A stretch of 32,000 bases of DNA from Candidatus Saccharimonadota bacterium (GCA_039920285.1 JBDSDX010000001.1:600001-632000); one strand, 5' to 3'; shown: positions 8,076 through 30,609, counted from the first letter of the stretch. Translations and numbers: made by a program. Notes: generated from the letters alone by a model not told the origin.

Positions 8076-8085
8076 CGCAGTGCAG

Positions 8086-9147
8086 ATGTTTCATTCAGCA
8101 ACTCTCAAGCTCACTGCATGGTATTTAGGTATTATTATGATAATCAGCATCCTTTTCAGTTTCGCTATTTATCAAATCAATTTCCATGAGGTGAATATCC
8201 GTCTTGAAAACCTCGAGAACGGCCTCGTAAGTAACCAAGGTTTTCGGACCGTCATTATAAAAGGTAACGGAAACGAACTTCGTCAAATACAATCAGATCA
8301 AGCTGCCTTACAAATGGTCATGTCACTGCTGTATATTAATATCATTATCCTCGTCGCAGGAGGATTCGGAAGTTATCTTTTAGCTCGTCGGACCCTGAGA
8401 CCAATAGAGGAGGCTCATGAGGCACAAAGCCGTTTTACGAGTGACGCCAGCCATGAGCTCCGTACTCCGCTGACAGTCATCAAAGCCGAGATTGAAGTGT
8501 TATTACGTGATAAGAAAATTGATCCAGATGAAGCGCGTGAACTCATGGTAAGCAACCTCGAAGAAATTGATAAACTTATTCGACTTTCTGAGATGCTTTT
8601 GAATTTATCGCGGCTTGATGAAGACAACCTCGAAAAGAAAACGCTCGATATGCCAGCACTGCTTAATGAAACATTAAAATCGTTTAAAGCATCTCAAAAA
8701 CGATTTGATGTCACAACTCGAAAAAATGCCACCATCTACGGAAACAGCGCTGCTATTTCTGAACTTATAACGATTTTGATTGATAACGCCTTAAAATATA
8801 GTGATCTCAGCTCTCGCATTTCTATTCGTGTATTCCAAAAACAGCGCACCATTGGATGCGAAATTATCAATAACGGACCGACTATTAAAGAGGAAGTGCT
8901 TCCGCATCTCTTTGAACGTTTCTACCGCGGCGACACTTCTCGAACTAATAGCACAAAAAATGGCTACGGCCTCGGGCTGGCGATCGCGAAAAAGATTGTC
9001 GACAATCACGACGGAGAAATTCAGGTTAAAAGTAAAGATAATAAGACGGTTTTCACGTTCTATCTCCCCATTCATAAGACTATCGACATCGAGACAAAAC
9101 CTAAAAATCATAACAATTCGACAGACGGCAAAATTACAACAAAATAA
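8086..9147 (+). CDS. Sensor histidine kinase (HisKA + HATPase_c)
   Basis: Two TM helices flank a short sensor loop. H-box FTSDASHELRTPLT, N-box LIDNALKYS, and G-boxes YRGDTSRT ... GYGLGLAIAKKIV. I prefer the ATG at 8086 (MFHSATLKL), 10 nt after the response-regulator stop, over the overlapping 8047 start. Confidence 0.9.
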   Translation: MFHSATLKLTAWYLGIIMIISILFSFAIYQINFHEVNIRLENLENGLVSNQGFRTVIIKGNGNELRQIQSDQAALQMVMSLLYINIIILVAGGFGSYLLARRTLRPIEEAHEAQSRFTSDASHELRTPLTVIKAEIEVLLRDKKIDPDEARELMVSNLEEIDKLIRLSEMLLNLSRLDEDNLEKKTLDMPALLNETLKSFKASQKRFDVTTRKNATIYGNSAAISELITILIDNALKYSDLSSRISIRVFQKQRTIGCEIINNGPTIKEEVLPHLFERFYRGDTSRTNSTKNGYGLGLAIAKKIVDNHDGEIQVKSKDNKTVFTFYLPIHKTIDIETKPKNHNNSTDGKITTK

Positions 9148-13105: not shown

Positions 13106-15232
13106 GTGAGGACTTCGCGCAAAAAAGTCGCCTTGAAGGTGACTGGATTAACCCTGGGAGTGTTACTCCTAGGTTCCATGGGGATTTCGGCTGCAAATGC
13201 CTTAACCTCCGATGACCCCGCCACGGACCCTGTGTCCGTCATGGAGGAGACGCTACCGGCGTCCGATCCTGCTCCTGCGACAGACCCGGCTCCTGAGTCA
13301 GGTCCTGTCGGAGAGACACCCAGCGAAGACCTGGTCTCGTCGCCAGTCGACGAGACCACCGACGGCACTGCGCCCGAGGAATCGAAAATGTCACAGTCTG
13401 TGGCAACAGTGGCGGCAAGCATCGGTGTAACCGGTGATCTGCTGCCATGGTCATCCGCAACTAACCAGGCCTCCTACTGGACGGATTACGGTCCGCACGA
13501 TGGAGCGCTCTGCTACAAGCATGACGCGAATGACTCGCCGAACGCACACGGATCGATCACAGACGGTGGAAAAACCGTCACGTTGAACCCCTACGGCGCA
13601 AATTGGCCCGGGGATCACTACGAACTGCTTGTCATCAAAGGCGGCAGTGACTACAACAACGTGATCATCCACCCAGTCGCCGGTGTCGCATACGCATCGC
13701 CGCCGAACTCGTCGGGCAACCAGTCCGACGTGTCACACTGGATCGTCTGCAAGGGCACCACGCCGCCGCCAATCGATGTTTGCAAAAACATCGACGGCAT
13801 TCAGACGCAAGTCCCTGCGGGCTACAACGAAAACTGCGAACCGCCGACCAACGACTGTGTCGCAGGAGCTGGTGAAACCTTCACCGAGAACAACCCGATG
13901 ATCGAGAACGACATGATCGGTAACGCCTCGTACTCGTACGAGAACGGCTATCTGAAAATCGTCACACTTGACGGGAATGCGAAGGTTAACCTCCGGAGTG
14001 GAAACCCGGGCTTCGCGTTGAAGAACGTCGGGACCCTGGACATCCTGGGCTCTAACGTCAGCGGTACAGTCAATGGCCTGGGCCTGAATCTCTACGTCGA
14101 CATGGATGGAGACCTCTCCACCACGAACGATCGAGGGACGATGGTCTTTGAAAAGGTGTACGGTCAGGACCTCTGGGTTCCGACTTCCGCATCGAATGCA
14201 GCTCTGTCTGCAGTCGCGCCTTCCCACACGGGAGGCAACGGATCAGCCAACCACGGCACCATCAACCAGTGGCTCACCAACATCCCGAACGCGTGGGTGA
14301 TGGACTGGGCGCTGAACTACGGTCGTATCGGTGCAACGGAGTGGAATGTGACGAAGGTCGTCATTAACTGCTCCAACTTCACTTACGACCACTACGTGGC
14401 TCCGCCGACACCTGTGTCGCCGAAGCCCACTGGTGATGTTGTCATCAGCTGCGTCAACACAACAGGTTCGGGTTCAAAGGCAGTCATCAACGCCTCAAAC
14501 CCTACACCGGAAGAAGGAACAACGACACCCGCTGTGAATTACAGCGTGACCGTCGATGGAGTCGTGGATCACACCTACGATTTCACCCTGAATCCTGGTG
14601 AAACGTTGTCGCCGCCCATTGAGATCTCCTTCGCGGAGGACTCGGGTAGCCACACCGTTGAACTCTGGTGGATTACCGACGCTATGCGTGAACCGGTCCA
14701 GCTGGACTCGGCGACCGCTGGCAGTGACTGTGCTCCGAACGAGGTAACCGGTACTCCGGGATCCTCGGCAACGCAGACCTGTGGTTCGGTCACGTACACG
14801 TTCTCATTCCCGGCTGTAGAGTTGGGTGAGAACGATTTCATCAAGCCAGTCACGTTCGTGTATACGGACGAGAACGGTGACGTACAAGAAGTCGTGATGA
14901 ACGCTGGTGACGGTGACGTCACCAAGACGGTTACGTACCCCGAGGACAGCCACAGTGGCAGCCTTGTGGTAGAGTTCGGTGAGAAGGGTAAAACCCTCAC
15001 CAAGCTGACCATCGACACTGATTGCCAGACACCGCCACCCCCGCCTCACGGTGGGGTTAACGGTGAAGTCCTGAACGGCCCGCTCATGTGGGTCGCTGGT
15101 GGCGTAGGAGCTGTGGGGCTGGTCGCACTGACCCTCCTCCTGTTCCCCGGCATCATCGGACGCCGCCGCAACTCGAGCCTTGTGCTTGAGGGACCGGCCG
15201 TTACAACCACCGTGGTGAGTGACACCGAGTAA
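13106..15232 (+). CDS. Secreted, membrane/cell-wall-anchored surface protein (708 aa), high-GC
   Basis: GTG start after the GAGGAG SD. Signal peptide MRTSRKKVALKVTGLTLGVLLLGSMGISAANA. Pro/Asp/Thr-rich linker (DPATDP ... DPAPATDPAPESGP). A single CKNIDGIQTQVPAGY-type motif. A poly-Pro stalk (TPPPPPHGG) precedes a C-terminal hydrophobic helix plus RRRN. All antisense ORFs here are high-GC shadow ORFs. Confidence 0.85.
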   Translation: MRTSRKKVALKVTGLTLGVLLLGSMGISAANALTSDDPATDPVSVMEETLPASDPAPATDPAPESGPVGETPSEDLVSSPVDETTDGTAPEESKMSQSVATVAASIGVTGDLLPWSSATNQASYWTDYGPHDGALCYKHDANDSPNAHGSITDGGKTVTLNPYGANWPGDHYELLVIKGGSDYNNVIIHPVAGVAYASPPNSSGNQSDVSHWIVCKGTTPPPIDVCKNIDGIQTQVPAGYNENCEPPTNDCVAGAGETFTENNPMIENDMIGNASYSYENGYLKIVTLDGNAKVNLRSGNPGFALKNVGTLDILGSNVSGTVNGLGLNLYVDMDGDLSTTNDRGTMVFEKVYGQDLWVPTSASNAALSAVAPSHTGGNGSANHGTINQWLTNIPNAWVMDWALNYGRIGATEWNVTKVVINCSNFTYDHYVAPPTPVSPKPTGDVVISCVNTTGSGSKAVINASNPTPEEGTTTPAVNYSVTVDGVVDHTYDFTLNPGETLSPPIEISFAEDSGSHTVELWWITDAMREPVQLDSATAGSDCAPNEVTGTPGSSATQTCGSVTYTFSFPAVELGENDFIKPVTFVYTDENGDVQEVVMNAGDGDVTKTVTYPEDSHSGSLVVEFGEKGKTLTKLTIDTDCQTPPPPPHGGVNGEVLNGPLMWVAGGVGAVGLVALTLLLFPGIIGRRRNSSLVLEGPAVTTTVVSDTE

Positions 15233-15959
15233 GGGTCGCCGCAACGCCATCGTAAGGGTCGTGGCAGGGACTGTCGTAGTAGCGAGTATTTTGACGCTGC
15301 TCTACATGTTTCTGCCACGGCCACCGGTTCCTCGGCAAGTCGTCGTGGAGCCACCGGTGGCCGCGTTGGCACCCGAGGTAGAACCCCCGCTCGACAAAGT
15401 TGTTCCAGCAGGAAAACCTCTAAGGGTACAAATCCCGTCGGTTAGTTTCGACACGGATGCGATCATCCCGAAAGATGAAACAGAGAAGATCAAGGAATGG
15501 TCAACGGAAGACGACAATGCAGCCCATGGGCTGGTCCAACCCGGAGACTACTGGGCATGGTCGCTCGTATACGATACGTCAGTCGCTGGCGGCGGTCTCT
15601 TCGGAACCGATGTCGCGACAACACCTCGCATCGACGGACACACCAGTCCATGGAATAGCAATCCCTTGGGGGCATTCAATGTCCTTCAGTCGGTGGAAGT
15701 TGGCGACGTTGTTGCCATCACTACCGATCAGGGTCTCCTCTGCTACAATGTCAGCATGATTGACCATGTGCTCAAAACCGAACTCGACACGACGTACGAT
15801 AAATACGACAGTGCCAAGATCGAAGAGGACACAGTTCTTCTGCAGTCGTGCGACCGCCCTACATGGTGGTTGGATTGGCTGGCAACAGATAAGAACATCG
15901 TCGTAAAGCTCAAGTTAAACCAGAGCTCGACAAATGCTGGCACCTGCTGGGTTGCGTAA
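15219..15959 (+). CDS. Sortase-like transpeptidase (class E/F-like), membrane-anchored
   Basis: The GTG start overlaps the upstream gene by 14 nt. N-terminal TM (VVAGTVVVASILTLLYMFL) and a Pro-rich linker. LRVQIPSVSFDTDAI resembles the sortase L-x-IP-x-IG-V strand. His in RIDGHTSP; VLQSVEVGDVVAITTDQGLLCYNV; Cys in TVLLQSCDRP (TLxTC-like). I could not place the catalytic Arg confidently. Confidence 0.6.
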   Translation: MTPSKGRRNAIVRVVAGTVVVASILTLLYMFLPRPPVPRQVVVEPPVAALAPEVEPPLDKVVPAGKPLRVQIPSVSFDTDAIIPKDETEKIKEWSTEDDNAAHGLVQPGDYWAWSLVYDTSVAGGGLFGTDVATTPRIDGHTSPWNSNPLGAFNVLQSVEVGDVVAITTDQGLLCYNVSMIDHVLKTELDTTYDKYDSAKIEEDTVLLQSCDRPTWWLDWLATDKNIVVKLKLNQSSTNAGTCWVA

Positions 15960-16094: not shown

Positions 16095-16137
16095 AAATTG
16101 GCAAAAAATATAGGATATTTCAGATTTAACCCGGCAT

Positions 16138-16146
16138 TGATACAAT
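16138..16146 (+). promoter_or_regulatory. Extended -10 element TGaTACAAT for the carotenoid operon
   Basis: TGATACAAT at 16138-16146. The ATG of the first gene at 16157 is 10 nt downstream with no clear SD. Confidence 0.45.
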
Positions 16147-16156
16147 AGATGGATAC

Positions 16157-17236
16157 ATGTCAGACCAAGCAACTCATACCCATACAGAGGTTTTAACGTC
16201 ACAACAGGCTAAACAGCTCGTGGACGAATATATGTTAGACTTACTCGCTGACCGAATCGCGCAGGCAAGTGCAGTCCATGGAAACTACAAACGTCTCTGG
16301 GAAGCTATTCAGAATTTATATAGTGCTGGCGGCAAACGTTTACGGCCTTATATGACACTCTTGACGTACCAAGCCTATGCCGATAAACCAGTTGAAAATG
16401 TTCTTCCGGCAGCTGTTGCCCAAGAATTGCTCCATCAAGCCATGCTGATTCACGACGATATTATCGACCGTGATACTGTTCGCTATAATGTAAAGAATAT
16501 CTCAGGCCAGTATCTCGATATATATACAGACCTGGCAGAATCCCGACATTTTGCCGACAGTAGCGCTATCCTCGCAGGTGACTTACTAATATCTGAAGCA
16601 CATATTCAAGTTGCAAAAAGTAACACAGAGCCAAAAATTTTAACGCAAGTACAACAGATCTTAAATCAGGAAGTCTTCCACGTTGTAGGTGGAGAACTCC
16701 TTGATACTGAAGCGAGTTTTTCTCAAGAGAGTATCATTGATCCACTGACAATTGCCGAACAAAAAACAGCAAGTTATTCTTTCGTCGGTCCACTCACAAT
16801 GGGCGCAACACTGGCAGGCGCAGACGAAGTGCAAATAGGACTATTGAAACACTTCGGCACTTCGATTGGCATTGCCTACCAACTACGTGATGACATCATA
16901 GGCATTTTTGGTAATCAAGTAGTGACTGGTAAAAGTAACGAGGGTGATATTCGTGAAGGCAAGCGCACACTTTTGATCGATGAGTTCTATAAACGAGCAA
17001 ACGATGATCAAAAAGCTCAATTTGAAACTACCTTTGGCTCACAGACTGCGACCGATACCGACATACAGACAGTTCGCGAGCTTCTCATTGAAACGGGAGC
17101 TGTTGCCGCTATCGAAACTTGTATCGATTCATATAAACAGCAAACGATCGATCATCTCGCCGAACTATCGATCCCCGAACCATACCGCGAACAATTTAAC
17201 ATTCTCATAGCGCAGAGTTTGGATCGAGAAAGCTAA
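16157..17236 (+). CDS. crtE: Polyprenyl diphosphate synthase (geranylgeranyl-PP synthase-like, CrtE/IdsA)
   Basis: First Asp-rich motif LIHDDIIDRD, second Asp-rich motif QLRDDIIG, GGKRLRP, and a KT-SYSF region. It is the first gene of a crt-type operon. Confidence 0.88.
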   Translation: MSDQATHTHTEVLTSQQAKQLVDEYMLDLLADRIAQASAVHGNYKRLWEAIQNLYSAGGKRLRPYMTLLTYQAYADKPVENVLPAAVAQELLHQAMLIHDDIIDRDTVRYNVKNISGQYLDIYTDLAESRHFADSSAILAGDLLISEAHIQVAKSNTEPKILTQVQQILNQEVFHVVGGELLDTEASFSQESIIDPLTIAEQKTASYSFVGPLTMGATLAGADEVQIGLLKHFGTSIGIAYQLRDDIIGIFGNQVVTGKSNEGDIREGKRTLLIDEFYKRANDDQKAQFETTFGSQTATDTDIQTVRELLIETGAVAAIETCIDSYKQQTIDHLAELSIPEPYREQFNILIAQSLDRES

Positions 17237-18060
17237 TGGAACTCTACGAAAAAGTCAGCTATGCGATTAGTCGTGAATTAACAAATGCTTATTCAACATC
17301 ATTTAGCTTGAGCATGCGATTATTCTCTCCGTCTATTCGAACGCACATCTACGCAATTTATGGCATGGTCCGCATTGCTGATGAAATCGTTGATAGCTAT
17401 AGTGGAGCCGACCAGCGGGAACTTCTCGATACTCTCGAAAAAGAAGTAAAAGCTGCGGTAAAGCGAGGCTATAGTACCAACCCAATCATCCACGCCTATG
17501 CGTTAACCGCACATCGTTTTAGTATTCCTAATAGTTTCGTCACCGCTTTCTTCAAAAGCATGCGCATGGATCTACAGGTTCAGACGTATGATCAAACGAA
17601 GTATGAGACCTATATCTACGGCTCAGCGGAAGTCGTGGGGCTTATGTGCTTGAAAGTGTTCACAGATGACGAAGCATTGTATCTGCAGCTTGAAGACGGT
17701 GCCCGACATCTCGGTGCAGCCTATCAAAAAGTAAATTTCATTCGTGATATTAAAGCTGACCATGAAACCCTGGGTCGTTGGTATTTTCCGTTCAGTTCGT
17801 TTATGACATTTGATGATAAAGTGCGTGGTCGTATCATAAAAGATATCGAAAAAGACTTCGTACTCGCCAAAAGAGCAGCTGCTCAGCTACCGGAGACATC
17901 TCGTCGTGCGGTTGAGCTCAGCATCACGTATTATTCAACATTACTTGAAAAGATTAAGAAGAGCCCAGCATCGCGACTCAAAACACATCGTATCCGTATT
18001 AATAACGCTCACAAAATGAGTCTTTTTATAAAAGTAGGGACATCTCGTCGTGAAGCGTAA
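17236..18060 (+). CDS. crtB: Phytoene synthase
   Basis: Squalene/phytoene synthase pattern: YSTSFSLSMRLF, YAIYGMVRIADEIVD, YIYGSAEVVGLMC, GAAYQKVNFIRDIKAD. The ATG overlaps the crtE stop (TAATG). Confidence 0.9.
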   Translation: MELYEKVSYAISRELTNAYSTSFSLSMRLFSPSIRTHIYAIYGMVRIADEIVDSYSGADQRELLDTLEKEVKAAVKRGYSTNPIIHAYALTAHRFSIPNSFVTAFFKSMRMDLQVQTYDQTKYETYIYGSAEVVGLMCLKVFTDDEALYLQLEDGARHLGAAYQKVNFIRDIKADHETLGRWYFPFSSFMTFDDKVRGRIIKDIEKDFVLAKRAAAQLPETSRRAVELSITYYSTLLEKIKKSPASRLKTHRIRINNAHKMSLFIKVGTSRREA

Positions 18061-19570
18061 GGTTATTATCATCGGTGGCGGTATTGGTGGCTTAGCGACC
18101 GCTAATCTATTACAAAAAGCAGGGTATGACGTGTCTATGTATGAAAAGAATGACCAACTTGGTGGTCGAGCTGGGTTAAAGAAAGCGATGGGTTTTTCAT
18201 TTGATACTGGCCCCTCATGGTACCTTATGCCTGGAGTTTTTAAACAATATTTTGATTTGTTTGGACTGTCAGTCAATAAAGAATTAGGGCTGAAAAAATT
18301 GAAACCAGCTTATAAGGTATTCTATGAATCGCATCAGCCTATCACTATAACTGGTAATCAAAAAACCGACAGCGCGACGTTTGAACGTATCGAGCCGGGT
18401 GCCGGTAAAGCTCTCGCGCGCTACGTTGAAGAGGGGAATCATATCTATCGATTTGCGCTGAAGCACTTTCTCTACACGAACTTCAACCGCCCACTTGATC
18501 TCGTCAAATTGGAAATATTGAGACAGGGTCCGCCAATGCTAAAACTACTTGCTACCTCTGTTCATAGCAGAGTAAAATCCTTTGTTTCGAACCAAGCACT
18601 GCAACAAATACTTGAGTACCCAATGGTGTTCTTAGGTTCATCACCGTTCAAAGCACCAGCAATGTATAGTCTTATGAGCGCACTCGATTTTAAGGAGGGT
18701 GTGTATTATCCAAAAGAGGGAATTTATTCAATTATCCAGTTGCTCGAATGGACTGGCCGCGAGCTTGGTGTGTCGTACAAGCTCAACACTGGTGTCAAAA
18801 GAATTCTTCATAAAAATGGTCACGCCACGGGAATTTTACTTGAAACTGGTGAAAAGATCGACGCAGATATTGTGATCTCCAATGCGGATCTGCACTTCAC
18901 AGAAACAAAACTTCTCAGCGCTTCTGCACGTTCATATCCTGCAGCTTATTGGGGGAAACGAGAGCCAGGTATCTCAGCACTTCTTATCTACCTCGGCATC
19001 AAAGGCTCTTTACCCCAACTCGAACACCACAACCTATTCTTCGTCGACAAATGGAAAGAGAATTTCCGCGCGATCTATAAAACAAAAGAGATTCCGAAGT
19101 CAGCATCACTTTACGTGTGTAAACCTTCAGCAACCGACACGAACGTTGCGCCAAAAGGACATGAAAATGTCTTTGTCCTCGTTCCGCTTCCTGCCGGAGT
19201 CAAAATTTCTAAAATTCAGACCGCCCAACTTACGGAACGTTTTATAGAACAACTATCGACGTCTATCGACCAGCCAGATCTCAAAGATCGTATCGTTTTC
19301 CAGGAAAGCTTTGGCCCTGGTGACTTTGAAACGAAATTCGGTGCCTGGCAGGGAACAGCCCTGGGTGTTTCCCACTTATTAAAACAAAGTGCCTTTTGGC
19401 GTACTCCAAATAAAAGTAAAAAACTTGATAATCTTTTTTACGTTGGTGGAAACACTGTTCCCGGTGTGGGATTACCGATGTGTTTGATTAGCGCAGAACT
19501 TGTCTATAAGCGAATTATGGGTATCAAACGTGGTGGGGCGCTCACAGCAATAGAAAAGGTCACTGACTAG
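18050..19570 (+). CDS. crtI: Phytoene desaturase (CrtI family)
   Basis: N-terminal FAD fold VIIIGGGIGGLATANLLQKAGYDVSMYEKNDQLGGRA, then FDTGPSWYLMP. C-terminal LFYVGGNTVPGVGLPMCLISAELV is typical of CrtI. The start overlaps crtB by 11 nt. Confidence 0.9.
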   Translation: MKRKVIIIGGGIGGLATANLLQKAGYDVSMYEKNDQLGGRAGLKKAMGFSFDTGPSWYLMPGVFKQYFDLFGLSVNKELGLKKLKPAYKVFYESHQPITITGNQKTDSATFERIEPGAGKALARYVEEGNHIYRFALKHFLYTNFNRPLDLVKLEILRQGPPMLKLLATSVHSRVKSFVSNQALQQILEYPMVFLGSSPFKAPAMYSLMSALDFKEGVYYPKEGIYSIIQLLEWTGRELGVSYKLNTGVKRILHKNGHATGILLETGEKIDADIVISNADLHFTETKLLSASARSYPAAYWGKREPGISALLIYLGIKGSLPQLEHHNLFFVDKWKENFRAIYKTKEIPKSASLYVCKPSATDTNVAPKGHENVFVLVPLPAGVKISKIQTAQLTERFIEQLSTSIDQPDLKDRIVFQESFGPGDFETKFGAWQGTALGVSHLLKQSAFWRTPNKSKKLDNLFYVGGNTVPGVGLPMCLISAELVYKRIMGIKRGGALTAIEKVTD

Positions 19571-19878
19571 TGCTGTGGTATTTGATTGGACTCTTGTTCG
19601 CAATTATTTGTTTAATACTCATTGATTGGCGTTACAAACTTGCATTCTTTTTTGATAGCAAACGAACTGCCTTGACACTCTTTGTGGCAATCGGATTATT
19701 CACCGTGTGGGACGTGCTGGGTATTCGTCTTCATATATTTTTTCACGGTGGGTCAGACTTTACGTTACCTATTCGATTGGCGCCAGAATTTCCACTTGAG
19801 GAACTTTTCTTCCTATTCCTTCTGACCTATGTCACGTTAATTGTGTATCGGTTCTTACAAAAAGGTAAAAAAGCATGA
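19570..19878 (+). CDS. Lycopene-cyclase-domain small subunit (CrtYc/CrtYe-like)
   Basis: 102-aa, 3-TM protein. The GTG start shares 1 nt with the crtI stop. Its position and size match heterodimeric carotenoid cyclase subunits, and PLEELFFLFLLTYVTL resembles the P-x-EE motif of the lycopene-cyclase domain. Confidence 0.72.
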   Translation: MLWYLIGLLFAIICLILIDWRYKLAFFFDSKRTALTLFVAIGLFTVWDVLGIRLHIFFHGGSDFTLPIRLAPEFPLEELFFLFLLTYVTLIVYRFLQKGKKA

Positions 19879-20165
19879 CCTACCTTATATTGAATATATT
19901 ATTTCTTGCGACATTGATATTTTTCATTCCAAATACATTTAAAAAACCAACCAAACAGTGGTGGATTCTTCTTGCGGCTGTTCTCTTATTAACCGCTGTC
20001 TTTGACCCCATCATTATTGCGCTTCATATTGTGGCCTATGATCCAACGAACATTCTCGGTATCTATTGGTTTGGCGCACCAATTGAAGATTTCTTTTACG
20101 CACTCTATGCAGTACTATTAATTCCATTAGCATGGCAAAAAATTGGAGCCTCACGTGGTAAATAA
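19875..20165 (+). CDS. Lycopene-cyclase-domain small subunit (CrtYd/CrtYf-like)
   Basis: 96-aa, 3-TM protein with an ATGA overlap with the previous gene. GAPIEDFFYALYAVLLI matches the P-x-E(E/D) cyclase-domain motif. It forms a pair with the preceding subunit. Confidence 0.72.
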   Translation: MTYLILNILFLATLIFFIPNTFKKPTKQWWILLAAVLLLTAVFDPIIIALHIVAYDPTNILGIYWFGAPIEDFFYALYAVLLIPLAWQKIGASRGK

Positions 20166-21000
20166 ATTACTCAAATTGTTCAAAGTCTCTCGTCCTATTT
20201 CATGGATCAATACCGCATATCCATTCTTAGCCGCATATTTAGTTGTCGGAGGTCAGATTGATCTCGTCTTCATATTAGGGAGTATTTTCTTTTTCATCCC
20301 TTATAACATTTTGATGTACGGCATTAATGATGTATTTGATTATGAATCTGATGTCCAAAATCCTCGAAAAGGAACGATTGAAGGAGCGGTTGAATCGAAG
20401 CAATTTCACCCTTACATCATTAAAGCTTCATTAATTTCGACGATTCCATTTGTCATTGCTCTGGCATTTTTAATACCTTGGTATGCAACACTGACACTTC
20501 TCGTCGTGCTATTCTTTGTCGTTGCATACAGTGTCAAAGGGCTGCGTTTTAAAGAAATCCCCGTACTCGATTCAATCACCAGCAGTATGCACTTCATCGG
20601 TCCACTTCTGGTAGCTCTCGCTATTTTTGACTGGCCATCACAAGCTTGGCCAATAGTCATTGCATTCTTTCTATGGGGTATGGCGAGCCATGCATTCGGT
20701 GCTGTTCAAGACATTATTCCTGATCGAAAAGGGAAGTTGAAGTCTATCGCAACCGTACTGGGAGCGCGCATCACTGTTGGCTTCAGCTTCTTACTCTACA
20801 TCGTTAGTTCGATGATCATAAGTATTAATGGCAATGAGATATTTATCGGTATCGTTGGGTTACTCTACGCGCTCAATGTCTTGCCGTACCTACACGTCAG
20901 TGACAAGACATCAGCAACAACCAATAAAGGCTGGCGACGATTCATTTGGATTAATTATATCGTTGGTGCGGTTATCACACTCACGTTACTGTTTGTCTAA
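20143..21000 (+). CDS. UbiA-family prenyltransferase (lycopene-elongase CrtEb/LyeJ-like)
   Basis: UbiA motifs NDVFDYESD (NDxxDxxxD), YSVKGLRFKEIPVLDS, and a second Asp motif VQDIIPDRKGKLKSIA. About 8 TM helices. It is the last gene of the crt operon and overlaps the previous gene. The start is TTG 20143 or GTG 20155. Confidence 0.8.
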   Translation: MEPHVVNKLLKLFKVSRPISWINTAYPFLAAYLVVGGQIDLVFILGSIFFFIPYNILMYGINDVFDYESDVQNPRKGTIEGAVESKQFHPYIIKASLISTIPFVIALAFLIPWYATLTLLVVLFFVVAYSVKGLRFKEIPVLDSITSSMHFIGPLLVALAIFDWPSQAWPIVIAFFLWGMASHAFGAVQDIIPDRKGKLKSIATVLGARITVGFSFLLYIVSSMIISINGNEIFIGIVGLLYALNVLPYLHVSDKTSATTNKGWRRFIWINYIVGAVITLTLLFV

Positions 21001-22174: not shown

Positions 22175-22768
22175 CTACGAACGACGCAACAGAGACAAGA
22201 AGCTGGGCTTCTTGTCATCAGAGCGAGGTGTGCTCAACTGGACACGCTTGCCGGCCTTGATCGTCTCTCCGGTGTTCAGAGTGACATACCTGTCGATGAT
22301 CACCCGAGGGCCAAGGACGACATCACGACCAAAGGTCGTGTGATCGCCGATCCAGGCATTCCTGGCGATAGTGAGCTTGTCACCGGCGCTGAAGCCCATG
22401 CCAACGAGAACATTGTTCTCGATGCGGCTGTGAGCGCCGATTCTTGCTCCCGATCCAAGGATGACATTGTTGCCGACGATGATGTGGAAGTCCATGAAGG
22501 CATTGCCCTCGAGAACGACGTCGTCGCCGAGAGTTACTTCCGTAAGGATGCTCTTCTCACCGATCTCGGTGCGGTCACCGATGACGACTTCCATGAACTG
22601 GCAGCCGTCCTTGATGATGACATCGTCACCGATGTGAACATCGTCTTTGAACCAGACGTTGCTACCGATCGTGACGCGCTCACCGACAGTGAAGCGTCCG
22701 CCGATCTTCACCTGGACAACGGTGTTGTCAGGGTTGGTGTGGCGATATGTTTCAAGAACTGCAGTCAT
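22175..22768 (-). CDS. Hexapeptide-repeat (left-handed beta-helix) protein, possible acyltransferase; high-GC
   Basis: Almost the whole 197-aa protein is made of imperfect hexapeptide repeats (VTIGSNVWFKDDVHIGDDVIIKDGCQF ... IVGNNVILGSGARIGAHSRIENNVLVGMG ... IARNAWIGDHTTFGRDVVLGPRVIID). I prefer ATG 22768, which has GGGGGA 9 nt upstream and a TTGACT-17-TAATAT promoter at 22858-22830. The longer ORF-track start at 22858 would begin inside that promoter's -35 box. Confidence 0.75.
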   Translation of the reverse strand: MTAVLETYRHTNPDNTVVQVKIGGRFTVGERVTIGSNVWFKDDVHIGDDVIIKDGCQFMEVVIGDRTEIGEKSILTEVTLGDDVVLEGNAFMDFHIIVGNNVILGSGARIGAHSRIENNVLVGMGFSAGDKLTIARNAWIGDHTTFGRDVVLGPRVIIDRYVTLNTGETIKAGKRVQLSTPRSDDKKPSFLSLLRRS

Positions 22769-22829
22769 AATGGAATTCCCCCAAATGTTGCGTGTCGATT
22801 TGTTAAGGCGTAGATGGTCTACGATGTAC

Positions 22830-22858
22830 ATATTACCATAAACGTGATGAAAAGTCAA
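22830..22858 (-). promoter_or_regulatory. Sigma-70-type promoter TTGACT-17-TAATAT for the beta-helix gene
   Basis: On the minus strand, TTGACT lies at 22858-22853 and TAATAT at 22835-22830, with a 17-nt spacer. Confidence 0.55.
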
Positions 22859-22860
22859 TA

Positions 22861-23454
22861 CTAACGCGTGCGTTTAACAGGGGTACCGCGTGTCGTCAGT
22901 TGGCGTGTAATAAGGAATACTGCGAAGATTCCGTTGATCAAGAAAAGTGTTATCGGGTAGAGCGCGGTATTGAGGGTAAACGTATTTAACGCAAATAACG
23001 CTAAAAAGAATTTTGTCCCATTTAGTGCAAAAGTAATTGCAGTTTCTTCGTGAGCATTCTTAAGGGATTTACGAAACGTCGGAATCATTCCAACGATGAA
23101 AATCGTACATGCAAGTATAACAGTGAAGATATCGTTACTATCTTGACCCCAAAGAACAAGTACAACCATTGCGACTGCGAGACACATCCAATCAAGCCGT
23201 GTGATCTTTTTTTCACCATACTTGAACGCAGATAAGAAGATAGCAAAGTCAGCAAAGGCAGCGACGCCTGTCACCCATGCTCCTGGTCCCGCACCGTGTG
23301 CTAGTTGTTGAATACAGATGACTGTATTAAGAGTTCCCCAGACCAACCAAGATATAGCATGAGGTTTAGTTTTTCTTTTGAAAATATCACGAAAGTATAA
23401 GCTGTAGCTGACAATGGCAATGAGAACGGAGATAAGACCGATTAAAGTGGTCAT
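22861..23454 (-). CDS. Hypothetical polytopic membrane protein (about 6 TM)
   Basis: 197 aa and hydrophobic throughout. Its start has a 4-nt ATGA overlap with the upstream gene. No family assigned. Confidence 0.7.
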   Translation of the reverse strand: MTTLIGLISVLIAIVSYSLYFRDIFKRKTKPHAISWLVWGTLNTVICIQQLAHGAGPGAWVTGVAAFADFAIFLSAFKYGEKKITRLDWMCLAVAMVVLVLWGQDSNDIFTVILACTIFIVGMIPTFRKSLKNAHEETAITFALNGTKFFLALFALNTFTLNTALYPITLFLINGIFAVFLITRQLTTRGTPVKRTR

Positions 23455-23987
23455 GCAGACGGTTCTTCTTTGGAGCGTGCTCTGCGAATCACGAGAAGTC
23501 GAATGATGACATAGGTTGTAGTGACAAACGCGGTGACAATAATAGTTGCGATCATTTGATAATACGTTACTGCTGTTTTGAAAACAGGAACGGCCGGGTT
23601 GGATGTTCCGGAGGTTATTTGCGGCGTTAATGTCGGACAGACCAATGTTTCGTCTACAGAAGCACTACTCGGGGCCACATAGGTGGTGCCTGTAGACACA
23701 CAGCCGAGCGTCGTCGCTGGAGTGAGGGACAAACACAAGCTTGGCTGAAAAACACCATTATCTACTGGCTGGACCGACAGGTCGGCACACATCTTTACGT
23801 CGGCGTATTTCTTGACTGTTTCATATTCAGGATGAATGACATTAACGATAAATGGACTGATTAAGAGGTAGGTAATGAGACCAAAAAAAGCCATAGCAAT
23901 TAAAAGCAAAGGCGTGAGTACCCTTGTGATCGCATGTTTCCGCTCATTTCCAGATACAAATATCCAGATATCTTCCATTGAAACCAT
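23451..23987 (-). CDS. Hypothetical bitopic membrane protein with a Cys-containing extracytoplasmic domain
   Basis: N-terminal TM (LTPLLLIAMAFFGLITYLLISPFIV), a middle domain with 4 Cys and Ser/Thr-rich stretches, and a C-terminal TM (MIATIIVTAFVTTTYVIIRLLVI). Its start lies 5 nt after the upstream stop. Confidence 0.62.
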   Translation of the reverse strand: MVSMEDIWIFVSGNERKHAITRVLTPLLLIAMAFFGLITYLLISPFIVNVIHPEYETVKKYADVKMCADLSVQPVDNGVFQPSLCLSLTPATTLGCVSTGTTYVAPSSASVDETLVCPTLTPQITSGTSNPAVPVFKTAVTYYQMIATIIVTAFVTTTYVIIRLLVIRRARSKEEPSA

Positions 23988-24773: not shown

Positions 24774-26486
24774 TTACTCAGTCGTTTTCGCAATCAACTT
24801 TTCTGCATCGAGCATACGCTTGAGGCGCATCACCCCATTTCGAGCTGTGACCATAGAAAGTGTTCGTCCTAACTCATATTGAACAGCAACTGTTCGCCAT
24901 GTGACATGCTCATCAGTAAAATAATAGGCTTTAATAAGCTTCCGTTCGCGGACGCCGATTGTTTCGAGTAGGGCATTCAGGTGATCGTGATCAAGTGTGA
25001 CTAATCCCAGTTTGCTAGCGAGTCGCTCTTCCTTGGTTTGTTTTTCTGGTGGCGTCGCGAACTCACCGTGACCGTATTTACGTGCCATTAAGAGAAGTTC
25101 GGTACGATTACGTGCACCTGTTTTCCTAAAACCTTCAGCTATGTCGTAATGAAGTCGAGAAACATCAACACCAGTCCGTTCTACTAGTTCATCGTCAGTT
25201 AAGTCGAGATTCTGATAAATATATAACCTATCAGTATTAAACGCGTCAGCCATCGGTTTGATCGGCTCAGGGATATTGAATTCATAGCCATGTTCATAGA
25301 GATAAAGCGCTAACTGTCGTCGCTTATCGAGGCCGACACGCTCAAGCATACGACTCACCGCACCGCCGACAGCATCTTTCGATAGACCCGTCACATTCAT
25401 AATCGCTTCCGTATCCTCTAGTAGTAGATGAGGAATGATTTCTCGCTGGAACAACGTAAATACCTTTAAATAATCTGGCGCTTCGTCAACTCTCGGAACC
25501 AGGTTATTAAGTCGAGCCATAATAGCCATTTCTGTACGACTTCGCGCTTTCATTTTCTTTTTTAATAACGTGGTCATGTCATTAATTGCCTGGAATGATG
25601 TGTTGAGTTTTTCGCTGATATCCTCATAACTATAATGTGTCAAAGAAATAACATCGAGTTGTTTATCGGTAAATATAACTCCTTCAGGAAGCGTAGGAAC
25701 ATCAAAAACAATCCCTGCATCGATACAGGCAAGTGCCAATGTCGCCCGGTTCGGGATACTGAACTGATTCTGGACCGTGCGCATTTTCTTATAAAATGTC
25801 GAGATATCCATTCCGGTTTTTTTTTCGACACCAACATTCGGAAGATTAATATACTGTAACCAATCGACATGCGATAACAACACCTCAGCCTGAGTAGGTT
25901 CATTATCTTGATACTGCTTAGCCTTCCGTTCCTCAAGTGAGTCAACTCTCTCGAGTGTTGACATAAACTGGTAGAGCGCCGCCGTTGGCTTTTTTCTATC
26001 TCCGATAAACGCATCGCCATTAGTCCAAGGGAACTCTTTTTGAAAGGCTTGATCAATCAGAAGCGCAGCATATTCTGTGAAAATAGTTGTCGTAGAGCGA
26101 AGATTGTATGTCATCGCCGCCTCAAGGAGCACCGATTCACCAACACTCATCAATTGGTCAAAGTTATCAAACGAGACCGCACGGTACGGATAGGCGAGGG
26201 CTGCAATCATGCCTTTATTCATTGTGACAATATCATCAGCTTTGTCCAAATCTCCACGACGAAGTGCAAACACCGCTTCTTTTTGTTGCGCACGAGAAGG
26301 TGTCTCCTCTTTACTTATTTGTCTTTGGAATCGAATCAGCAGCGCATCGAGTGGATCTTCTTTTGTGACAAAATTGACACGATCAAGATACTTACTCGGC
26401 TTATTGTCATCATCGCTCGACGACTCATATTCTGAAGGTGTCACAGGCATATCATTATCATAATATTCCTTAAAGAACTTGTGCAA
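24774..26486 (-). CDS. Sigma-70 region-2-like protein with four tandem LuxR/GerE-type HTH modules and a terminal sigma region-4-like HTH
   Basis: Residues ~82-150, ADDIVTMNKGMIAALAYPYRAVSFDNFDQLMSVGESVLLEAAMTYNLRSTTTIFTEYAALLIDQAF, fit the sigma-70 r2 pattern. Four modules follow, ending in IPNRATLALACIDAGIV, ARSRTEMAIMARLNNLV, LDKRRQLALYLYEHGY and ARNRTELLLMARKYGH. The final part is RERKLIKAYYF ... VAVQYELGRTLSMVTARNGVMRLKRML. The start is uncertain: TTG 26486 or ATG 26450. Confidence 0.72.
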   Translation of the reverse strand: MHKFFKEYYDNDMPVTPSEYESSSDDDNKPSKYLDRVNFVTKEDPLDALLIRFQRQISKEETPSRAQQKEAVFALRRGDLDKADDIVTMNKGMIAALAYPYRAVSFDNFDQLMSVGESVLLEAAMTYNLRSTTTIFTEYAALLIDQAFQKEFPWTNGDAFIGDRKKPTAALYQFMSTLERVDSLEERKAKQYQDNEPTQAEVLLSHVDWLQYINLPNVGVEKKTGMDISTFYKKMRTVQNQFSIPNRATLALACIDAGIVFDVPTLPEGVIFTDKQLDVISLTHYSYEDISEKLNTSFQAINDMTTLLKKKMKARSRTEMAIMARLNNLVPRVDEAPDYLKVFTLFQREIIPHLLLEDTEAIMNVTGLSKDAVGGAVSRMLERVGLDKRRQLALYLYEHGYEFNIPEPIKPMADAFNTDRLYIYQNLDLTDDELVERTGVDVSRLHYDIAEGFRKTGARNRTELLLMARKYGHGEFATPPEKQTKEERLASKLGLVTLDHDHLNALLETIGVRERKLIKAYYFTDEHVTWRTVAVQYELGRTLSMVTARNGVMRLKRMLDAEKLIAKTTE

Positions 26487-27462: not shown

Positions 27463-28224
27463 CTAGATGAGTGTATTTGCAAAGATTTGCATTGCAAGAG
27501 CTGCTTTAGCGACGAAGCTCAGTACTATATACGCTCTTTCGCCTCGGAGGTAGTTCTTCCATTTTCCTTTTGCGCTGTACTGTTTGTACTGTACGTAAGC
27601 AAAGGTATTAAAGAGCACGAATATTGACACGATAATACCGTAGACAAAGGCTGGTGGAGTGGCGCTTGACGGTGAGTTTGGCGAAAGGACACTAATCAGA
27701 ACGATGATCCATGGAACTATTCCAGCGATACATCCGAAGATGAAGGGGAGCCAGTCGCCATTGCCTGGTTTTGCGTAACGTTCCTGAAGCCAGCCGAAAA
27801 GGATCATCGAAGCATTCACACCGACGATACCAATAAGCGCACCGTAGTTACTAATCCCAGTGATTTGTGCGATCAATAGAATCATCAATGATGAGCTGAC
27901 CGAATATTCGATCCATCGAAAGATATTTATATTTTCACTTAAACCCTTGATATAGCGAGGGAATACTCGTCCTGAAGCAACGAGAAAGTGAAAGAATGAC
28001 GACAGTCCAAGGAACAATGCGACGGCGTACCCTGTACGGATATTAAAGAGTGTAATCGGGTCAGTAAATATGCTTCCGGGAGGACCCGCAAGATACGATG
28101 CTGTGACCGGTAGCGAGAAATCATTAGATAGTAGTAGTACGACACCTGCGAGGATGAGGTGAAAACATCCTGCAATTATATTGAATCTGCGCAGTGAGCT
28201 TGCGGTACTTTTAGGTATATTCAT
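27463..28224 (-). CDS. Heliorhodopsin
   Basis: The 253-aa, 7-TM protein aligns along its whole length with heliorhodopsin 48C12 as I remember it: FNIIAGCFHLILAGVVLLLSNDFSLPVTASYLAGPPG, LFLGLSSFFHFLV, NIFRWIEYSVSSSLMILLIAQI (counterion Glu), GVNASMILFGWLQERY, LPFIFGCIAGIVPWI, FVYGIIVS, and WKNYLRGERAYIVLSFVAKAALAMQIF (Schiff-base Lys). Confidence 0.9.
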   Translation of the reverse strand: MNIPKSTASSLRRFNIIAGCFHLILAGVVLLLSNDFSLPVTASYLAGPPGSIFTDPITLFNIRTGYAVALFLGLSSFFHFLVASGRVFPRYIKGLSENINIFRWIEYSVSSSLMILLIAQITGISNYGALIGIVGVNASMILFGWLQERYAKPGNGDWLPFIFGCIAGIVPWIIVLISVLSPNSPSSATPPAFVYGIIVSIFVLFNTFAYVQYKQYSAKGKWKNYLRGERAYIVLSFVAKAALAMQIFANTLI

Positions 28225-28242
28225 ACCATTACTATACCAGAA

Positions 28243-30609
28243 TTATTGATGCGACCAGTGCTGAATTTCGGGCATATCGACACCGTTCTTATTTATATAA
28301 TTCGTGTGTTCAATCAGCTTCTTGTCCATCAGCTCCTTGAGGTTTTGAGCAGCTTCGCTCGTCAATCCAGCATACTCAATGGCATCAATCACCAAGTGGA
28401 ATCGGTCCATGTCGTTACGGACCGTCATATCAAACGCCGTTGTAATCGAGCCTTCCTCTTTATAGCCACGAACGTGAATATTACGATTGTGTCGCCGATA
28501 GGTAAGGCGGTGAATCAACCAAGGGTACCCATGGAACGCAAACAGTATTTCTTTGTCTTTCGTAAATAACTCGTCATATTCTGGATCACTCATACCGTGA
28601 GGGTGTTCGGTATTTGGCTCAAGTCGCATGAGGTCAACGACATTCACGACGCGAACTTTCAAATCAGGCAAGTACTCTTTCAGGATCGAAGCAGCTGCAA
28701 TAATCTCGAGTGTCGGCACATCCCCAGCACAGACCATGACGATATCAGGATCAGTGACACCTTCAGTACCCGCCCAGTCCCATACACCAATGCCACGAGA
28801 ACAGTGTGCGACCGCATCTTCCATGTTCAACCATTGAGGGCTACCGTGTTTACCGGTAATCGTCAGGTTTATGTAATTACGGCTACGTAAACAGTGGTCC
28901 ATAACCGAGAGAAGTGTATTTGCATCCGGAGGTAAGTAGATTCGAATAATTTCTGACTTTTTATTAACCAGGTGATCAATAAAGCCAGGATCTTGATGAG
29001 TAAACCCGTTGTGGTCTTGTCGCCACACGTGTGATGTGAGTAGGTAATTGAGCGAAGCAATGTCATTGCGCCACGGGAGTTCACTCGCCATCTTGATCCA
29101 CTTTGCGTGCTGAGTTACCATCGAGTCAACAATACGAATGAACGCCTCATAGCTATGGAGTAAGCCGTGACGTCCAGTCAATAGGTAGCCTTCAAGCCAA
29201 CCCTCAGCCTGGTGTTCACTCAGCATTGAGTCCAAAACTGCACCGCGATTTGAGAGGAACTCGTCAGAAGGTTTGACGCGTGCATTCCACTGCCTGTTTG
29301 TTGCCTCTAAAACCGCTTCAAGACGATTGGATACCAATTCATCAGGACCAAATATTCTGAAATTATTATATTTACTATTGAGTGCAATAATATCTCGGAA
29401 ATAGGGACCGGCCGCAAAGACATTTCCCATTTTTGACATATAGCCACGAGCGACTGCGACTTCATACTCACGAAAATCCGGGACATGAAGCTCCTGGAGC
29501 ATATCACCACCATTTGTATGTGGGTTTGAACCCATACGGTGCTTACCAACTGGAGCAAGTTCGGCAAGTTCAGGTAATAAACGTCCGTTACTATCGAAGA
29601 GTTCTTCTGGTCGATAACTCTTGAGCCATGCCTCGAGCTGTTCGACACTGCCCGGGTGAGCTTCGTCGACCGCCATAGGAACTTGGTGTGCTCTAAAGTT
29701 ATTTTCAATCTTTTTGCCATCAATTTCTTTAGGTCCTGTCCATCCTTTCGGAGAAGCGAGGATGATCATCGGCCAGCGGGGACGCGTCGTATCGTTATTA
29801 TCACGTGCATTCGTCTGAATTCGCTTAATCTCGGCAGTCACTTCATCGAGTTTTGTAGCCATCAGTTGGTGCATATCCATCGGATCGTCACCTTCAACAA
29901 AATAAGGATTCCAGCCATAGCCATGGAATAACTGCTCAAGCTCTTCACGTTCAATACGAGCCAAAATTGTTGGGTTACTAATCTTGTAGCCGTTCAAATG
30001 GAGGATAGGGAGCACGGCACCATCAGATTGGGCATTTAAGAATTTATTTGAGTGCCACGCGGTCGCCAGCGGGCCGGTCTCTGCCTCGCCGTCGCCAACC
30101 ACACAGGCGACGATCAAGTCGGGGTTATCAAAGGCGGCACCGAACGCATGACTCAGAGAATACCCCAGTTCACCACCTTCGTGAATTGATCCAGGTACTT
30201 GTGGCGAAACGTGGCTCGACAACCCGCCAGGGAATGATGACATTTTAAAGAGGTTGCGAAGACCATTCTCATCTTGAGTCACTTCAGGATAATACTCACT
30301 GAATGTCCCTTCGAGGTAGACATTTCCAACAATCGCTGGTCCACCATGTCCTGGTCCTGAAATATAGAGCATGTTTAGATTATCTTTTTTAATCACTCGG
30401 TTGAGGTGTGTATAAATAAAGTTTTGGCCTGGTGAGGTTCCCCAGTGTCCGAGAAGTAATTTCTTAACATGTTCAATTTTAAGCGGCTCTTTAAGAAGCG
30501 GATTATCACATAAATAGATCTGTCCAACGGTCACATAGTTGGTTGCGCGCCAATAGGCGTCAATGTTCTTGAGCATCTCTTCTGAGAGTGGGGTATCGCT
30601 CGGACTCAT
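28243..30609 (-). CDS. xfp: Xylulose-5-P/fructose-6-P phosphoketolase
   Basis: 788 aa. N-terminal [29 protein letters not shown], the signature [39 protein letters not shown], and [15 protein letters not shown]. The start overlaps the ackA stop by 4 nt. Confidence 0.95.

Follow-up and report, generated by a model that had tools for sequence, protein, structure and literature searches.

Can a bacterium with a strongly reduced genome keep a complete membrane-pigment pathway of its own, and does such a pathway serve the retinal protein encoded beside it? The question is raised by a stretch of 32,000 nucleotides (nt) from a Candidatus Saccharimonadota bacterium (GCA_039920285.1, JBDSDX010000001.1:600001-632000), termed the window in the following and numbered from its first nucleotide, in which six overlapping carotenoid (crt) genes lie close to a heliorhodopsin (HeR) gene. 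Saccharibacteria and the candidate phyla radiation (CPR) as a whole are viewed as minimal epibionts, which get their lipids and cofactors from their hosts. Herein, the six genes are interpreted as a translationally coupled and self-contained operon that resides in a Saccharimonadales genome and whose product, assigned by homology, would be a cyclic C50 carotenoid; a probability of about 0.78 is given to this reading.

In the literature searched, C50 genes in Saccharibacteria are discussed in one paper only (PMC9948471), as bacterioruberin genes, while public records annotate the operon proteins only as 'prenyltransferase' and similar. New with respect to that literature are the assignment to the cyclic C50 (CrtEb/cyclase) type, by which the earlier bacterioruberin reading is refined, the occurrence in about 23 species-level genomes, the reciprocal monophyly with Micrococcales and the lack of linkage to HeR.

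Organization of the crt operon

The six open reading frames (ORFs) are all located on the + strand and span 16157-21000 (Table 1). Consecutive ORFs overlap by 1, 11, 1 and 4 nt, and the last pair by 23 nt or 11 nt depending on whether the sixth gene is read from a TTG or a GTG start, exactly as a first-pass annotation of this DNA, made from the sequence alone, had described for six translationally coupled genes. The gene identities and the order crtE-B-I-Ye-Yf-Eb proposed there are likewise borne out, with domain matches far above chance and an order that recurs in related loci. The genes for a geranylgeranyl diphosphate (GGPP) synthase, a phytoene synthase and a CrtI desaturase thus belong to one transcription unit, arranged as in actinobacterial clusters, and the catalytic motifs are intact in all operon enzymes.

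The CrtE-like protein carries the first Asp-rich motif HDDIIDRD and a second one, RDDIIG, of the DDxxG variant that is also found in actinobacterial syntenic homologues; its best NCBIfam matches are actinobacterial-type polyprenyl synthases and GGPP_syn, all under their equivalog cutoffs. Its gene opens the operon in 10 Saccharibacteria loci and in most Micrococcales loci. Across syntenic loci, CrtB is 51-65% identical in Saccharibacteria and 33-44% in Micrococcales, and CrtI displays a GGGIGG motif for binding flavin adenine dinucleotide at its N-terminus. The first small cyclase subunit harbors the motif PLEE, with the position of its gene kept in all related loci, and the second harbors the motif PIED, with an ATGA overlap to the first and positional orthology in related loci. 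For the sixth gene, the GTG start gives 281 amino acids (aa) and the TTG start 285 aa, and the identical protein in NCBI (P0001) has 281 aa, in agreement with the former.

Directly upstream of the crtE ATG, an extended -10-like element, TGATACAAT, was found at 16138, which is also where the first-pass annotation had placed the beginning of the region. The promoter-like site of which it forms part lies 11 nt before this ATG, and a transcript from it would be leaderless or would have a very short leader. The site is weak evidence, because promoter and terminator scans found the region no richer in sites than shuffled sequence.

Table 1. Features of the window and of related loci, with the matches on which the assignments rest (window coordinates unless a locus is named)
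Feature	Coordinates	Strand	Evidence
Promoter-like site	16119..16146	+	consensus scan and sequence reading: TTCAGA-16 nt-TACAAT, TG upstream
crtE-like short-chain polyprenyl (GGPP) synthase, 359 aa	16157..17236	+	PF00348 E 3.6e-48
crtB phytoene synthase, 274 aa	17236..18060	+	PF00494 (SQS_PSY) E 4.6e-44; 1-nt overlap with crtE
crtI phytoene desaturase, 506 aa	18050..19570	+	TIGR02734 crtI_fam 512.6 bits (cutoff 238.1); PF01593, PF13450; 11-nt overlap with crtB
First lycopene-cyclase-domain subunit (CrtYe position), 102 aa	19570..19878	+	TIGR03462 (CarR_dom) 50.1 bits (cutoff 39.4)
Second lycopene-cyclase-domain subunit (CrtYf position), 96 aa	19875..20165	+	PF18916 35.5 bits (cutoff 27); TIGR03462 40.0 (cutoff 39.4); 4-nt overlap with first subunit
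crtEb-type UbiA prenyltransferase	20155..21000 (GTG) or from 20143 (TTG)	+	UbiA PF01040 E 1.2e-24; NF009608 380.5 bits
Heliorhodopsin	27463-28224	-	PF18761 E 7.8e-90, 242/242 profile positions; NF038020 308 bits (cutoff 100)
HeR-xfp-ackA gene group	27463-31772	-	
Two adjacent membrane proteins, 197 aa (about six helices) and 178 aa	22861-23454; 23451-23987	-	
Histidine kinase of the window	8047-9147		
GC-rich island	13106-15959		GC 0.55-0.58, GC3 0.61-0.69
Hexapeptide-repeat acyltransferase	22175-22858	-	GC3 0.675
570-aa protein	24774-26486	-	
PAS kinase/regulator pairs of five Saccharibacteria loci	L006 12143-15262; L007 6836-8402; L009 15365-16897; L018 12634-15578; L021 11417-14605		
Cyclase-elongase fusions	L002 6638-7837; L044 9689-10861		

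Identity of the UbiA-family enzyme

Whether the operon leads to a C50 carotenoid depends on its last enzyme. The NCBIfam models that match it are named only 'prenyltransferase', and for this reason they were calibrated with reference proteins picked by synteny from plasmids of Arthrobacter and Halarchaeum and from GTDB loci. Distant UbiA representatives hardly bear names either, apart from 'prenyltransferase' in an Agromyces and in a Dehalococcoidia MAG. On the Halarchaeum plasmid, crtB, crtI, a prenyltransferase gene and an annotated cruF are consecutive, which is the bacterioruberin layout, and the prenyltransferase adjoining cruF has NF009516 as its best match (397.5 bits). In Aurantimicrobium, Rhodoluna, Glutamicibacter, Arthrobacter and Kocuria, the protein at the crtEb position best matches NF009608 instead (408-469 bits), as does that of a second Saccharibacterium (402 bits); the genes in question have been named crtEb and crtYe/Yf in Aurantimicrobium (PMC7734400) and in Rhodoluna/Aquiluna (PMC12422013).

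Against this scale, the window enzyme scores 380.5 bits on NF009608 (cutoff 217), followed by NF010119 at 155 bits and NF009516 at 139.7 bits (cutoff 205). On the quinone models it reaches 23.3 bits for both ubiA_proteo TIGR01474 (cutoff 275) and the 4-hydroxybenzoate octaprenyltransferase NF009526 (cutoff 364), and neither a MenA nor a heme-O synthase match was found in NCBIfam. The motifs NDVFDYESD and QDIIPDR are present, and residues N58, D59, D62, D66, D186 and D190 are invariant in an alignment of 15 relatives (A1). Moreover, in a library of 1.84 billion proteins this UbiA domain is naturally fused to a lycopene-cyclase domain (P0121), to a CrtI-family desaturase (P0251, 852 aa) and to GT2 glycosyltransferases (P0129, P0130 and P0137, about 530-680 aa), and cyclase-elongase fusions resembling the LbtBC of Dietzia occur on the Arthrobacter plasmid and in several GTDB loci, for example L002 and L044; the LbtBC-like fusions have about 390-460 aa. 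Such fusions tie the subfamily to carotenoid chemistry. By family membership, the enzyme is a CrtEb-type lycopene elongase, for which lycopene-elongating activity is predicted. The first-pass view of an elongase-like UbiA protein, which a grouping with menaquinone or heme-O enzymes would have refuted, is upheld by these scores, and so is its C50-type assignment, given the best match shared with syntenic actinobacterial CrtEb proteins, the cyclase pair directly upstream and the common gene order.

Host, distribution and phylogeny

The UbiA protein shares 100% identity with an NCBI entry, 'MAG: prenyltransferase [Candidatus Saccharimonadales bacterium]', from a metagenome-assembled genome (MAG), where it is encoded on a 795,370-bp contig, and the operon is reproduced by an independent Logan assembly of run SRR26386597. 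The GC content of the operon (0.37-0.44) and the GC content at third codon positions (GC3, 0.33-0.42) agree with the backbone (GC3 0.34-0.47), by which the surrounding housekeeping genes for CysS, RecR, GreA, phosphoketolase and acetate kinase are meant. The Jensen-Shannon (JS) distance in codon usage is 0.092 between operon and backbone, compared with 0.096 between one half of the backbone and the other. In 11 other Saccharibacteria loci, operon GC likewise follows that of the flanks over a range of 0.43-0.54. Since its composition equals that of the host backbone, the operon is regarded as an old resident and not as contamination. The first-pass guesses of a Saccharibacteria-type epibiont as host and of backbone-like low GC in the operon are thereby confirmed, and its reservation that the contig might come from an ordinary actinobacterium or firmicute falls away in view of the identical Saccharimonadales protein and the separate clade described below.

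The segment between crtE and the genes further upstream differs in composition. This GC-rich island, whose GC3 of 0.61-0.69 compares with 0.34-0.47 in the backbone, codes for a secreted or surface protein of 708 aa, which has a C-terminal membrane anchor and matches no family, together with a weak sortase-like protein (PF04203 25.4 bits, just under the cutoff of 26.6). A 48%-identical homologue, likewise GC-rich (0.66 vs 0.47-0.50), lies upstream of crtE at the corresponding place in Microsaccharimonas (L004), and locus L005 has the same upstream ATPase as the window and no GC-rich island.

A pattern scan over one genome per GTDB species gave at least 589 relatives, of which the best 80 were kept as loci. 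These best 80 comprise about 23 Saccharibacteria/Patescibacteria assemblies with 50-68% identity, among which one bears the label Chloroflexi and another 'uncultured bacterium', and about 57 Micrococcales with 47-53% identity, including Brevibacterium, Promicromonospora, Glutamicibacter, Rhodoluna, Aquiluna, Aurantimicrobium, Leifsonia, Microbacterium, Arthrobacter, Kocuria and Cellulomonas. When the six window proteins were searched against them by tblastn, the order crtE-B-I-Ye-Yf-Eb was common to every sufficiently long locus. A metagenomic protein search added more than 120 proteins at 59-76% identity, several of them named Saccharibacteria and several on contigs of 0.75-0.95 Mb. The first-pass annotation expected autonomous carotenoid synthesis to be unusual for such a lineage; the operon is of textbook C50 type and its host is unusual, and it is not confined to this genome, given these further genomes and metagenomic proteins.

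In a neighbour-joining tree of the elongase rooted on Halarchaeum, the Saccharibacteria form a clade with a bootstrap value of 78, and in a concatenated tree of CrtB, CrtI and Eb (1058 columns, 67 taxa) Saccharibacteria and Actinomycetota are reciprocally monophyletic with values of 100 and 99, respectively. The 80 loci kept do not include the characterised C. glutamicum, M. luteus and Dietzia sequences, so that the trees are free of biochemically proven anchors, and the root of the elongase tree is a single outgroup. The arrangement of histidine kinase, GreA and P-type ATPase genes upstream of the operon is common to the window and L005. Taken together, the pattern is read as a single old event in which the entire operon passed between Saccharibacteria and Micrococcales lineages, and which would have been followed by vertical descent in a subset of the Saccharibacteria. 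The closest relatives of the pathway belong to Micrococcales, the order of the known Saccharibacteria hosts, which points to ancient gene exchange and makes it biologically plausible. A conserved and vertically maintained six-gene pathway that consumes ten C5 units per molecule would mean that some Saccharibacteria retain a costly membrane-pigment pathway. As a side result, locus L010 (SEAL01000015.1, labelled Chloroflexi bacterium PMG_070) carries crtI-Ye-Yf-Eb nested in the Saccharibacteria clade, with 59-62% identity to the window, and its contig is probably a mis-binned Saccharibacteria fragment.

When all ORFs of 16 Saccharibacteria loci were clustered, no gene besides the six crt genes was conserved beside the operon, and in particular no glycosyltransferase, oxygenase or isomerase (idi). 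No regulator of the MarR/CrtR or MerR/LitR type adjoins the operon of the window. Downstream of crtEb, at a distance of 1.5-5 kb, five other Saccharibacteria loci encode a PAS histidine kinase together with a response regulator whose output domain is unassigned. A light-sensing regulator was considered for this pair and rejected, as the PAS kinases of the five loci are devoid of the LOV motif (GxNCRFL) and no such pair exists downstream in the window, where the only kinase noted is located 7 kb upstream of the operon and has no PAS domain.

Proposed pathway and physiological role

The chemistry is deduced by homology to the systems of Corynebacterium glutamicum, Micrococcus luteus and Dietzia. 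The logic of the C50 pathway reportedly goes back to Krubasik 2001, Netzer 2010 and Tao 2007. For C. glutamicum, it is outlined in PMC3598387 and PMC6393565. On this model, CrtE would make GGPP from isopentenyl diphosphate (IPP) and dimethylallyl diphosphate (DMAPP) or from farnesyl diphosphate (FPP), CrtB would condense two GGPP into phytoene, and CrtI would desaturate phytoene to lycopene. The CrtEb-type UbiA enzyme would then add one DMAPP-derived C5 unit to each end, resulting in an acyclic, flavuxanthin-like C50 intermediate, whose end rings would be closed by the two small membrane subunits acting as a heterodimeric cyclase; whether these rings are of the epsilon, gamma or beta type is not predictable from sequence. 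The expected product is a pigment of the decaprenoxanthin, sarcinaxanthin or C.p.450 type.

The origin of the C5 precursors bears on a further statement of the first-pass annotation, namely that the host would synthesize its carotenoid autonomously. The word 'autonomous' is too strong, as a survey of freshwater CPR bacteria, the one source with a clear statement on isoprenoid precursors in the literature searched for Saccharibacteria, found only the C10-C20 isoprenoid steps and no C5 synthesis in classes other than Gracilibacteria (PMC9166423). If this result holds for the present genome, the operon would have to draw its IPP/DMAPP from import or from a pathway that is not yet recognised.

Most likely, the pigment would be located in the membrane and act there as a photoprotectant, as an antioxidant and as a stabiliser that contributes rigidity, which could be useful to a cell unable to make its own fatty acids. 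One operon-bearing genome, 'GW2011_GWC2_48_9' (L017), is presumably a member of a groundwater MAG series. In addition, C50 genes are on record for Saccharibacteria of Lake Baikal at a depth of 1600 m, for which the authors propose membrane cold adaptation (PMC9948471). Both occurrences argue against a strictly light-requiring role and suggest one that is not strictly light-dependent. Carotenoids give a strong resonance-Raman signal, which could help to find and sort these uncultured cells.

Heliorhodopsin and the source of retinal

A distance of 6.46 kb separates the HeR gene from the operon end, in keeping with the value of about 6.5 kb noted at first, and the HeR protein carries the SFVAK version of the retinal-lysine motif (SxxxK), which is among the common HeR motifs of CPR bacteria (PMC9166423). 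All ORFs of at least 100 aa that are not nested in longer genes, as well as a 79-aa ORF beside the operon, were scanned with Pfam, and the unassigned ones also with NCBIfam. Among these scanned ORFs of the window, no match to Blh/Brp, to RPE65-type carotenoid oxygenases or to CruF was obtained, so the first-pass statement that no retinal-forming enzyme is visible still applies to the 32 kb. No Blh structure is known to have been solved.

The proximity of the two elements had been taken to imply a functional tie, which is not borne out by the wider comparison. No HeR occurs in any of the 12 other Saccharibacteria operon loci with at least 10 kb of downstream sequence, nor in any other operon locus, and none of the six crt genes is found in the 80 metagenomic loci of HeR relatives (60-86% identity), about 20 of which have at least 7 kb on the relevant side. 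With a linkage of 0/12 and 0/80, the spacing of 6.5 kb is peculiar to this genome and does not constitute evidence of a functional unit, and HeR is probably an unrelated neighbour of the operon. As to its chromophore, Jaffe et al. did not find blh among Saccharibacteria that encode rhodopsins, and SacR apoproteins were seen to take up external retinal rapidly, at a rate described as comparable to that of heliorhodopsin (PMC9296517). Most simply, the retinal for HeR would be obtained from outside, from hosts or from the community, a source already put forward for Saccharibacteria with rhodopsins.

In the window, HeR starts 18 nt after the stop codon of xfp (phosphoketolase), which in turn overlaps ackA (acetate kinase), all three on the minus strand. 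Given this spacing and the shared strand, HeR may be co-transcribed with xfp-ackA, the main ATP-yielding fermentation genes; none of the 80 related HeR loci shows this arrangement. These relatives (L084-L163) consist of a close set of seven contigs with 81-86% identity, some of them 187-369 kb in length with 43-46% GC, and a large set with 60-68% identity, mostly on metagenome contigs of 39-49% GC. The two adjacent membrane proteins encoded between the operon and HeR have no Pfam or NCBIfam match, and in HeR locus L094 a 27%-identical homologue of the 197-aa protein is encoded 2 kb from the HeR gene.

Alternative readings of the operon

Several other explanations must be weighed against the cyclic C50 operon. 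That the genes form an acyclic C50 bacterioruberin pathway (LyeJ-CrtD-CruF), a type suggested for Patescibacteria of Lake Baikal, is regarded as very unlikely. A Saccharibacteria MAG does have lyeJ and crtD homologues together, plus a distant cruF (PMC9948471), and on the bifunctional CrtID model NF058655 the window CrtI reaches 514 bits, a value under the model's cutoff of 640. However, the UbiA protein is placed with the CrtEb-type model and stays far below the cutoff of the LyeJ-type NF009516, two cyclase subunits stand between crtI and the elongase, where bacterioruberin clusters such as the Halarchaeum locus have none, and CruF is missing from the scanned ORFs. A C40 pathway, in which the small subunits would be a CrtYc/Yd-type beta-cyclase yielding beta-carotene while the UbiA enzyme prenylates something else, draws on the fact that PF18916 and TIGR03462 do not tell C40 from C50 cyclases. 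It is nevertheless highly improbable: the UbiA gene and the second cyclase gene have 11-23 nt in common, in a position kept in every sufficiently long locus of the best 80, cyclase domains are naturally fused to UbiA domains in this family, and the cyclases of the syntenic Aurantimicrobium locus grouped with CrtYe/Yf, not with CrtYc/Yd, in a published phylogeny (PMC7734400). That a fragment of an actinobacterial host entered a Saccharibacteria bin, through an error of assembly or binning or through very recent transfer, might be suspected from the GC-rich island directly upstream and from the nearest non-Saccharibacteria relatives, which are Micrococcales and thus of the order of known hosts. 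Such an origin is hardly credible, as GC3 and codon usage of the operon equal the backbone, the identical protein sits on a 795-kb Saccharimonadales contig, the Logan assembly contains the same operon, the Saccharibacteria clade is separate with 100% support and only 47-53% identity to Actinomycetota, and the upstream synteny is common to L005.

The reading that touches the opening question most directly is that the operon feeds retinal production for HeR and for any type-1 rhodopsin, either because the small cyclases also make beta-carotene or because an undescribed oxygenase cleaves the cyclic C50 carotenoid asymmetrically. Its best precedent is Aurantimicrobium minutum KNC, which has crtEBI, crtYe/Yf, crtEb and a rhodopsin but no blh, in which endogenous retinal was detected by HPLC-MS/MS, and for which asymmetric cleavage of a cyclic C50 carotenoid was proposed by the authors (PMC7734400). 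Synteny links the window operon to locus L068 of Aurantimicrobium, and a HeR with an intact retinal-lysine motif lies 6.5 kb away. On the other side stand the lack of an oxygenase candidate among the scanned ORFs, the lack of any further gene conserved beside the operon in 16 Saccharibacteria loci, the linkage of 0/12 and 0/80, the rapid uptake of external retinal by heliorhodopsin and SacR apoproteins (PMC9296517), and Rhodoluna lacicola, which has the same gene set and which PMC7734400 cites as having required exogenous retinal. This route is accordingly judged unlikely, also in the broader form in which operon-bearing Saccharibacteria would not depend on hosts for their chromophore and would cleave a cyclic C50 (or C40) carotenoid to retinal or an analogue, as in A. 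minutum. If this is true, retinal import would no longer be an obligation of rhodopsin-bearing Saccharibacteria, contrary to the present view, and the search for the missing retinal-forming enzyme could be made in a minimal genome of about 0.8 Mb. The cyclic C50 operon remains the preferred interpretation, and some points count against it as well. Every chemical step of the pathway rests on homology, the cyclase domain models do not separate C40 from C50 enzymes, and CrtE falls under every NCBIfam equivalog cutoff, so that its chain length is an assumption. The supply of IPP/DMAPP may be missing in Saccharimonadia (PMC9166423), and blh, cruF, a glycosyltransferase or a type-1 rhodopsin may be encoded elsewhere in the genome. 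Lastly, because A. minutum makes retinal with the same gene set and no blh (PMC7734400), the link between operon and retinal keeps some weight.

Comparison with known C50 systems

The closest counterpart in layout is the decaprenoxanthin operon of C. glutamicum, crtE-(cg0722)-crtB-crtI-crtYe-crtYf-crtEb, which has the same six enzyme types in the same order and is similarly tightly coupled; the sarcinaxanthin cluster of M. luteus (crtE2, crtYg/Yh) and the C.p.450 cluster of Dietzia (lbtA, lbtBC) are related to it. In the actinobacterial clusters as in the window, a UbiA-family elongase follows two cyclase subunits of about 100 aa, and NF009608 fits both the window enzyme and the syntenic actinobacterial proteins tested. 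In contrast to these actinobacterial systems, the host is a Saccharibacterium with a reduced genome of about 0.8 Mb, whose operon proteins are only 31-53% identical to their Micrococcales homologues and form a separate clade. Unlike C. glutamicum-type clusters, the window has no MmpL gene in the operon, no divergent MarR-type CrtR and no glycosyltransferase nearby.

With respect to retinal proteins, the window resembles A. minutum KNC and Rhodoluna/Aquiluna, in which a retinal protein is likewise combined with a C50-type operon in the absence of blh, and the operons of freshwater Microbacteriaceae (L068, L029, L054, L058, L067 and L076) are syntenic with that of the window. The Saccharibacterium thereby joins a small group with a rhodopsin, a C50 operon and no blh, in which an unknown retinal route has been demonstrated in one cultured species. 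The resemblance has its limits: A. minutum and Rhodoluna/Aquiluna possess type-1 proton pumps, whereas the 32 kb show only a heliorhodopsin, and endogenous retinal is supported by biochemical evidence in A. minutum.

The bacterioruberin cluster of haloarchaea and Arthrobacter (crtD/crtI-lyeJ-cruF) also pairs a UbiA-family elongase with a CrtI-family desaturase and leads to a C50 product, as proposed for the window, and the Baikal Patescibacteria with lyeJ, crtD and cruF (PMC9948471) belong to the same phylum as the window host. The window differs in its cyclase subunits and in having no cruF in the 32 kb, and its UbiA protein is only 27-31% identical to the haloarchaeal proteins and lies under the cutoff of the LyeJ-type model.

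Other genes of the window

Two further minus-strand genes lie between the operon and HeR. The 570-aa protein shows weak, sub-threshold matches to LuxR/GerE-type helix-turn-helix domains and has no close family. The hexapeptide-repeat acyltransferase gene is the second compositional outlier of the window after the GC-rich island, and its GC3 suggests that it was recently acquired.

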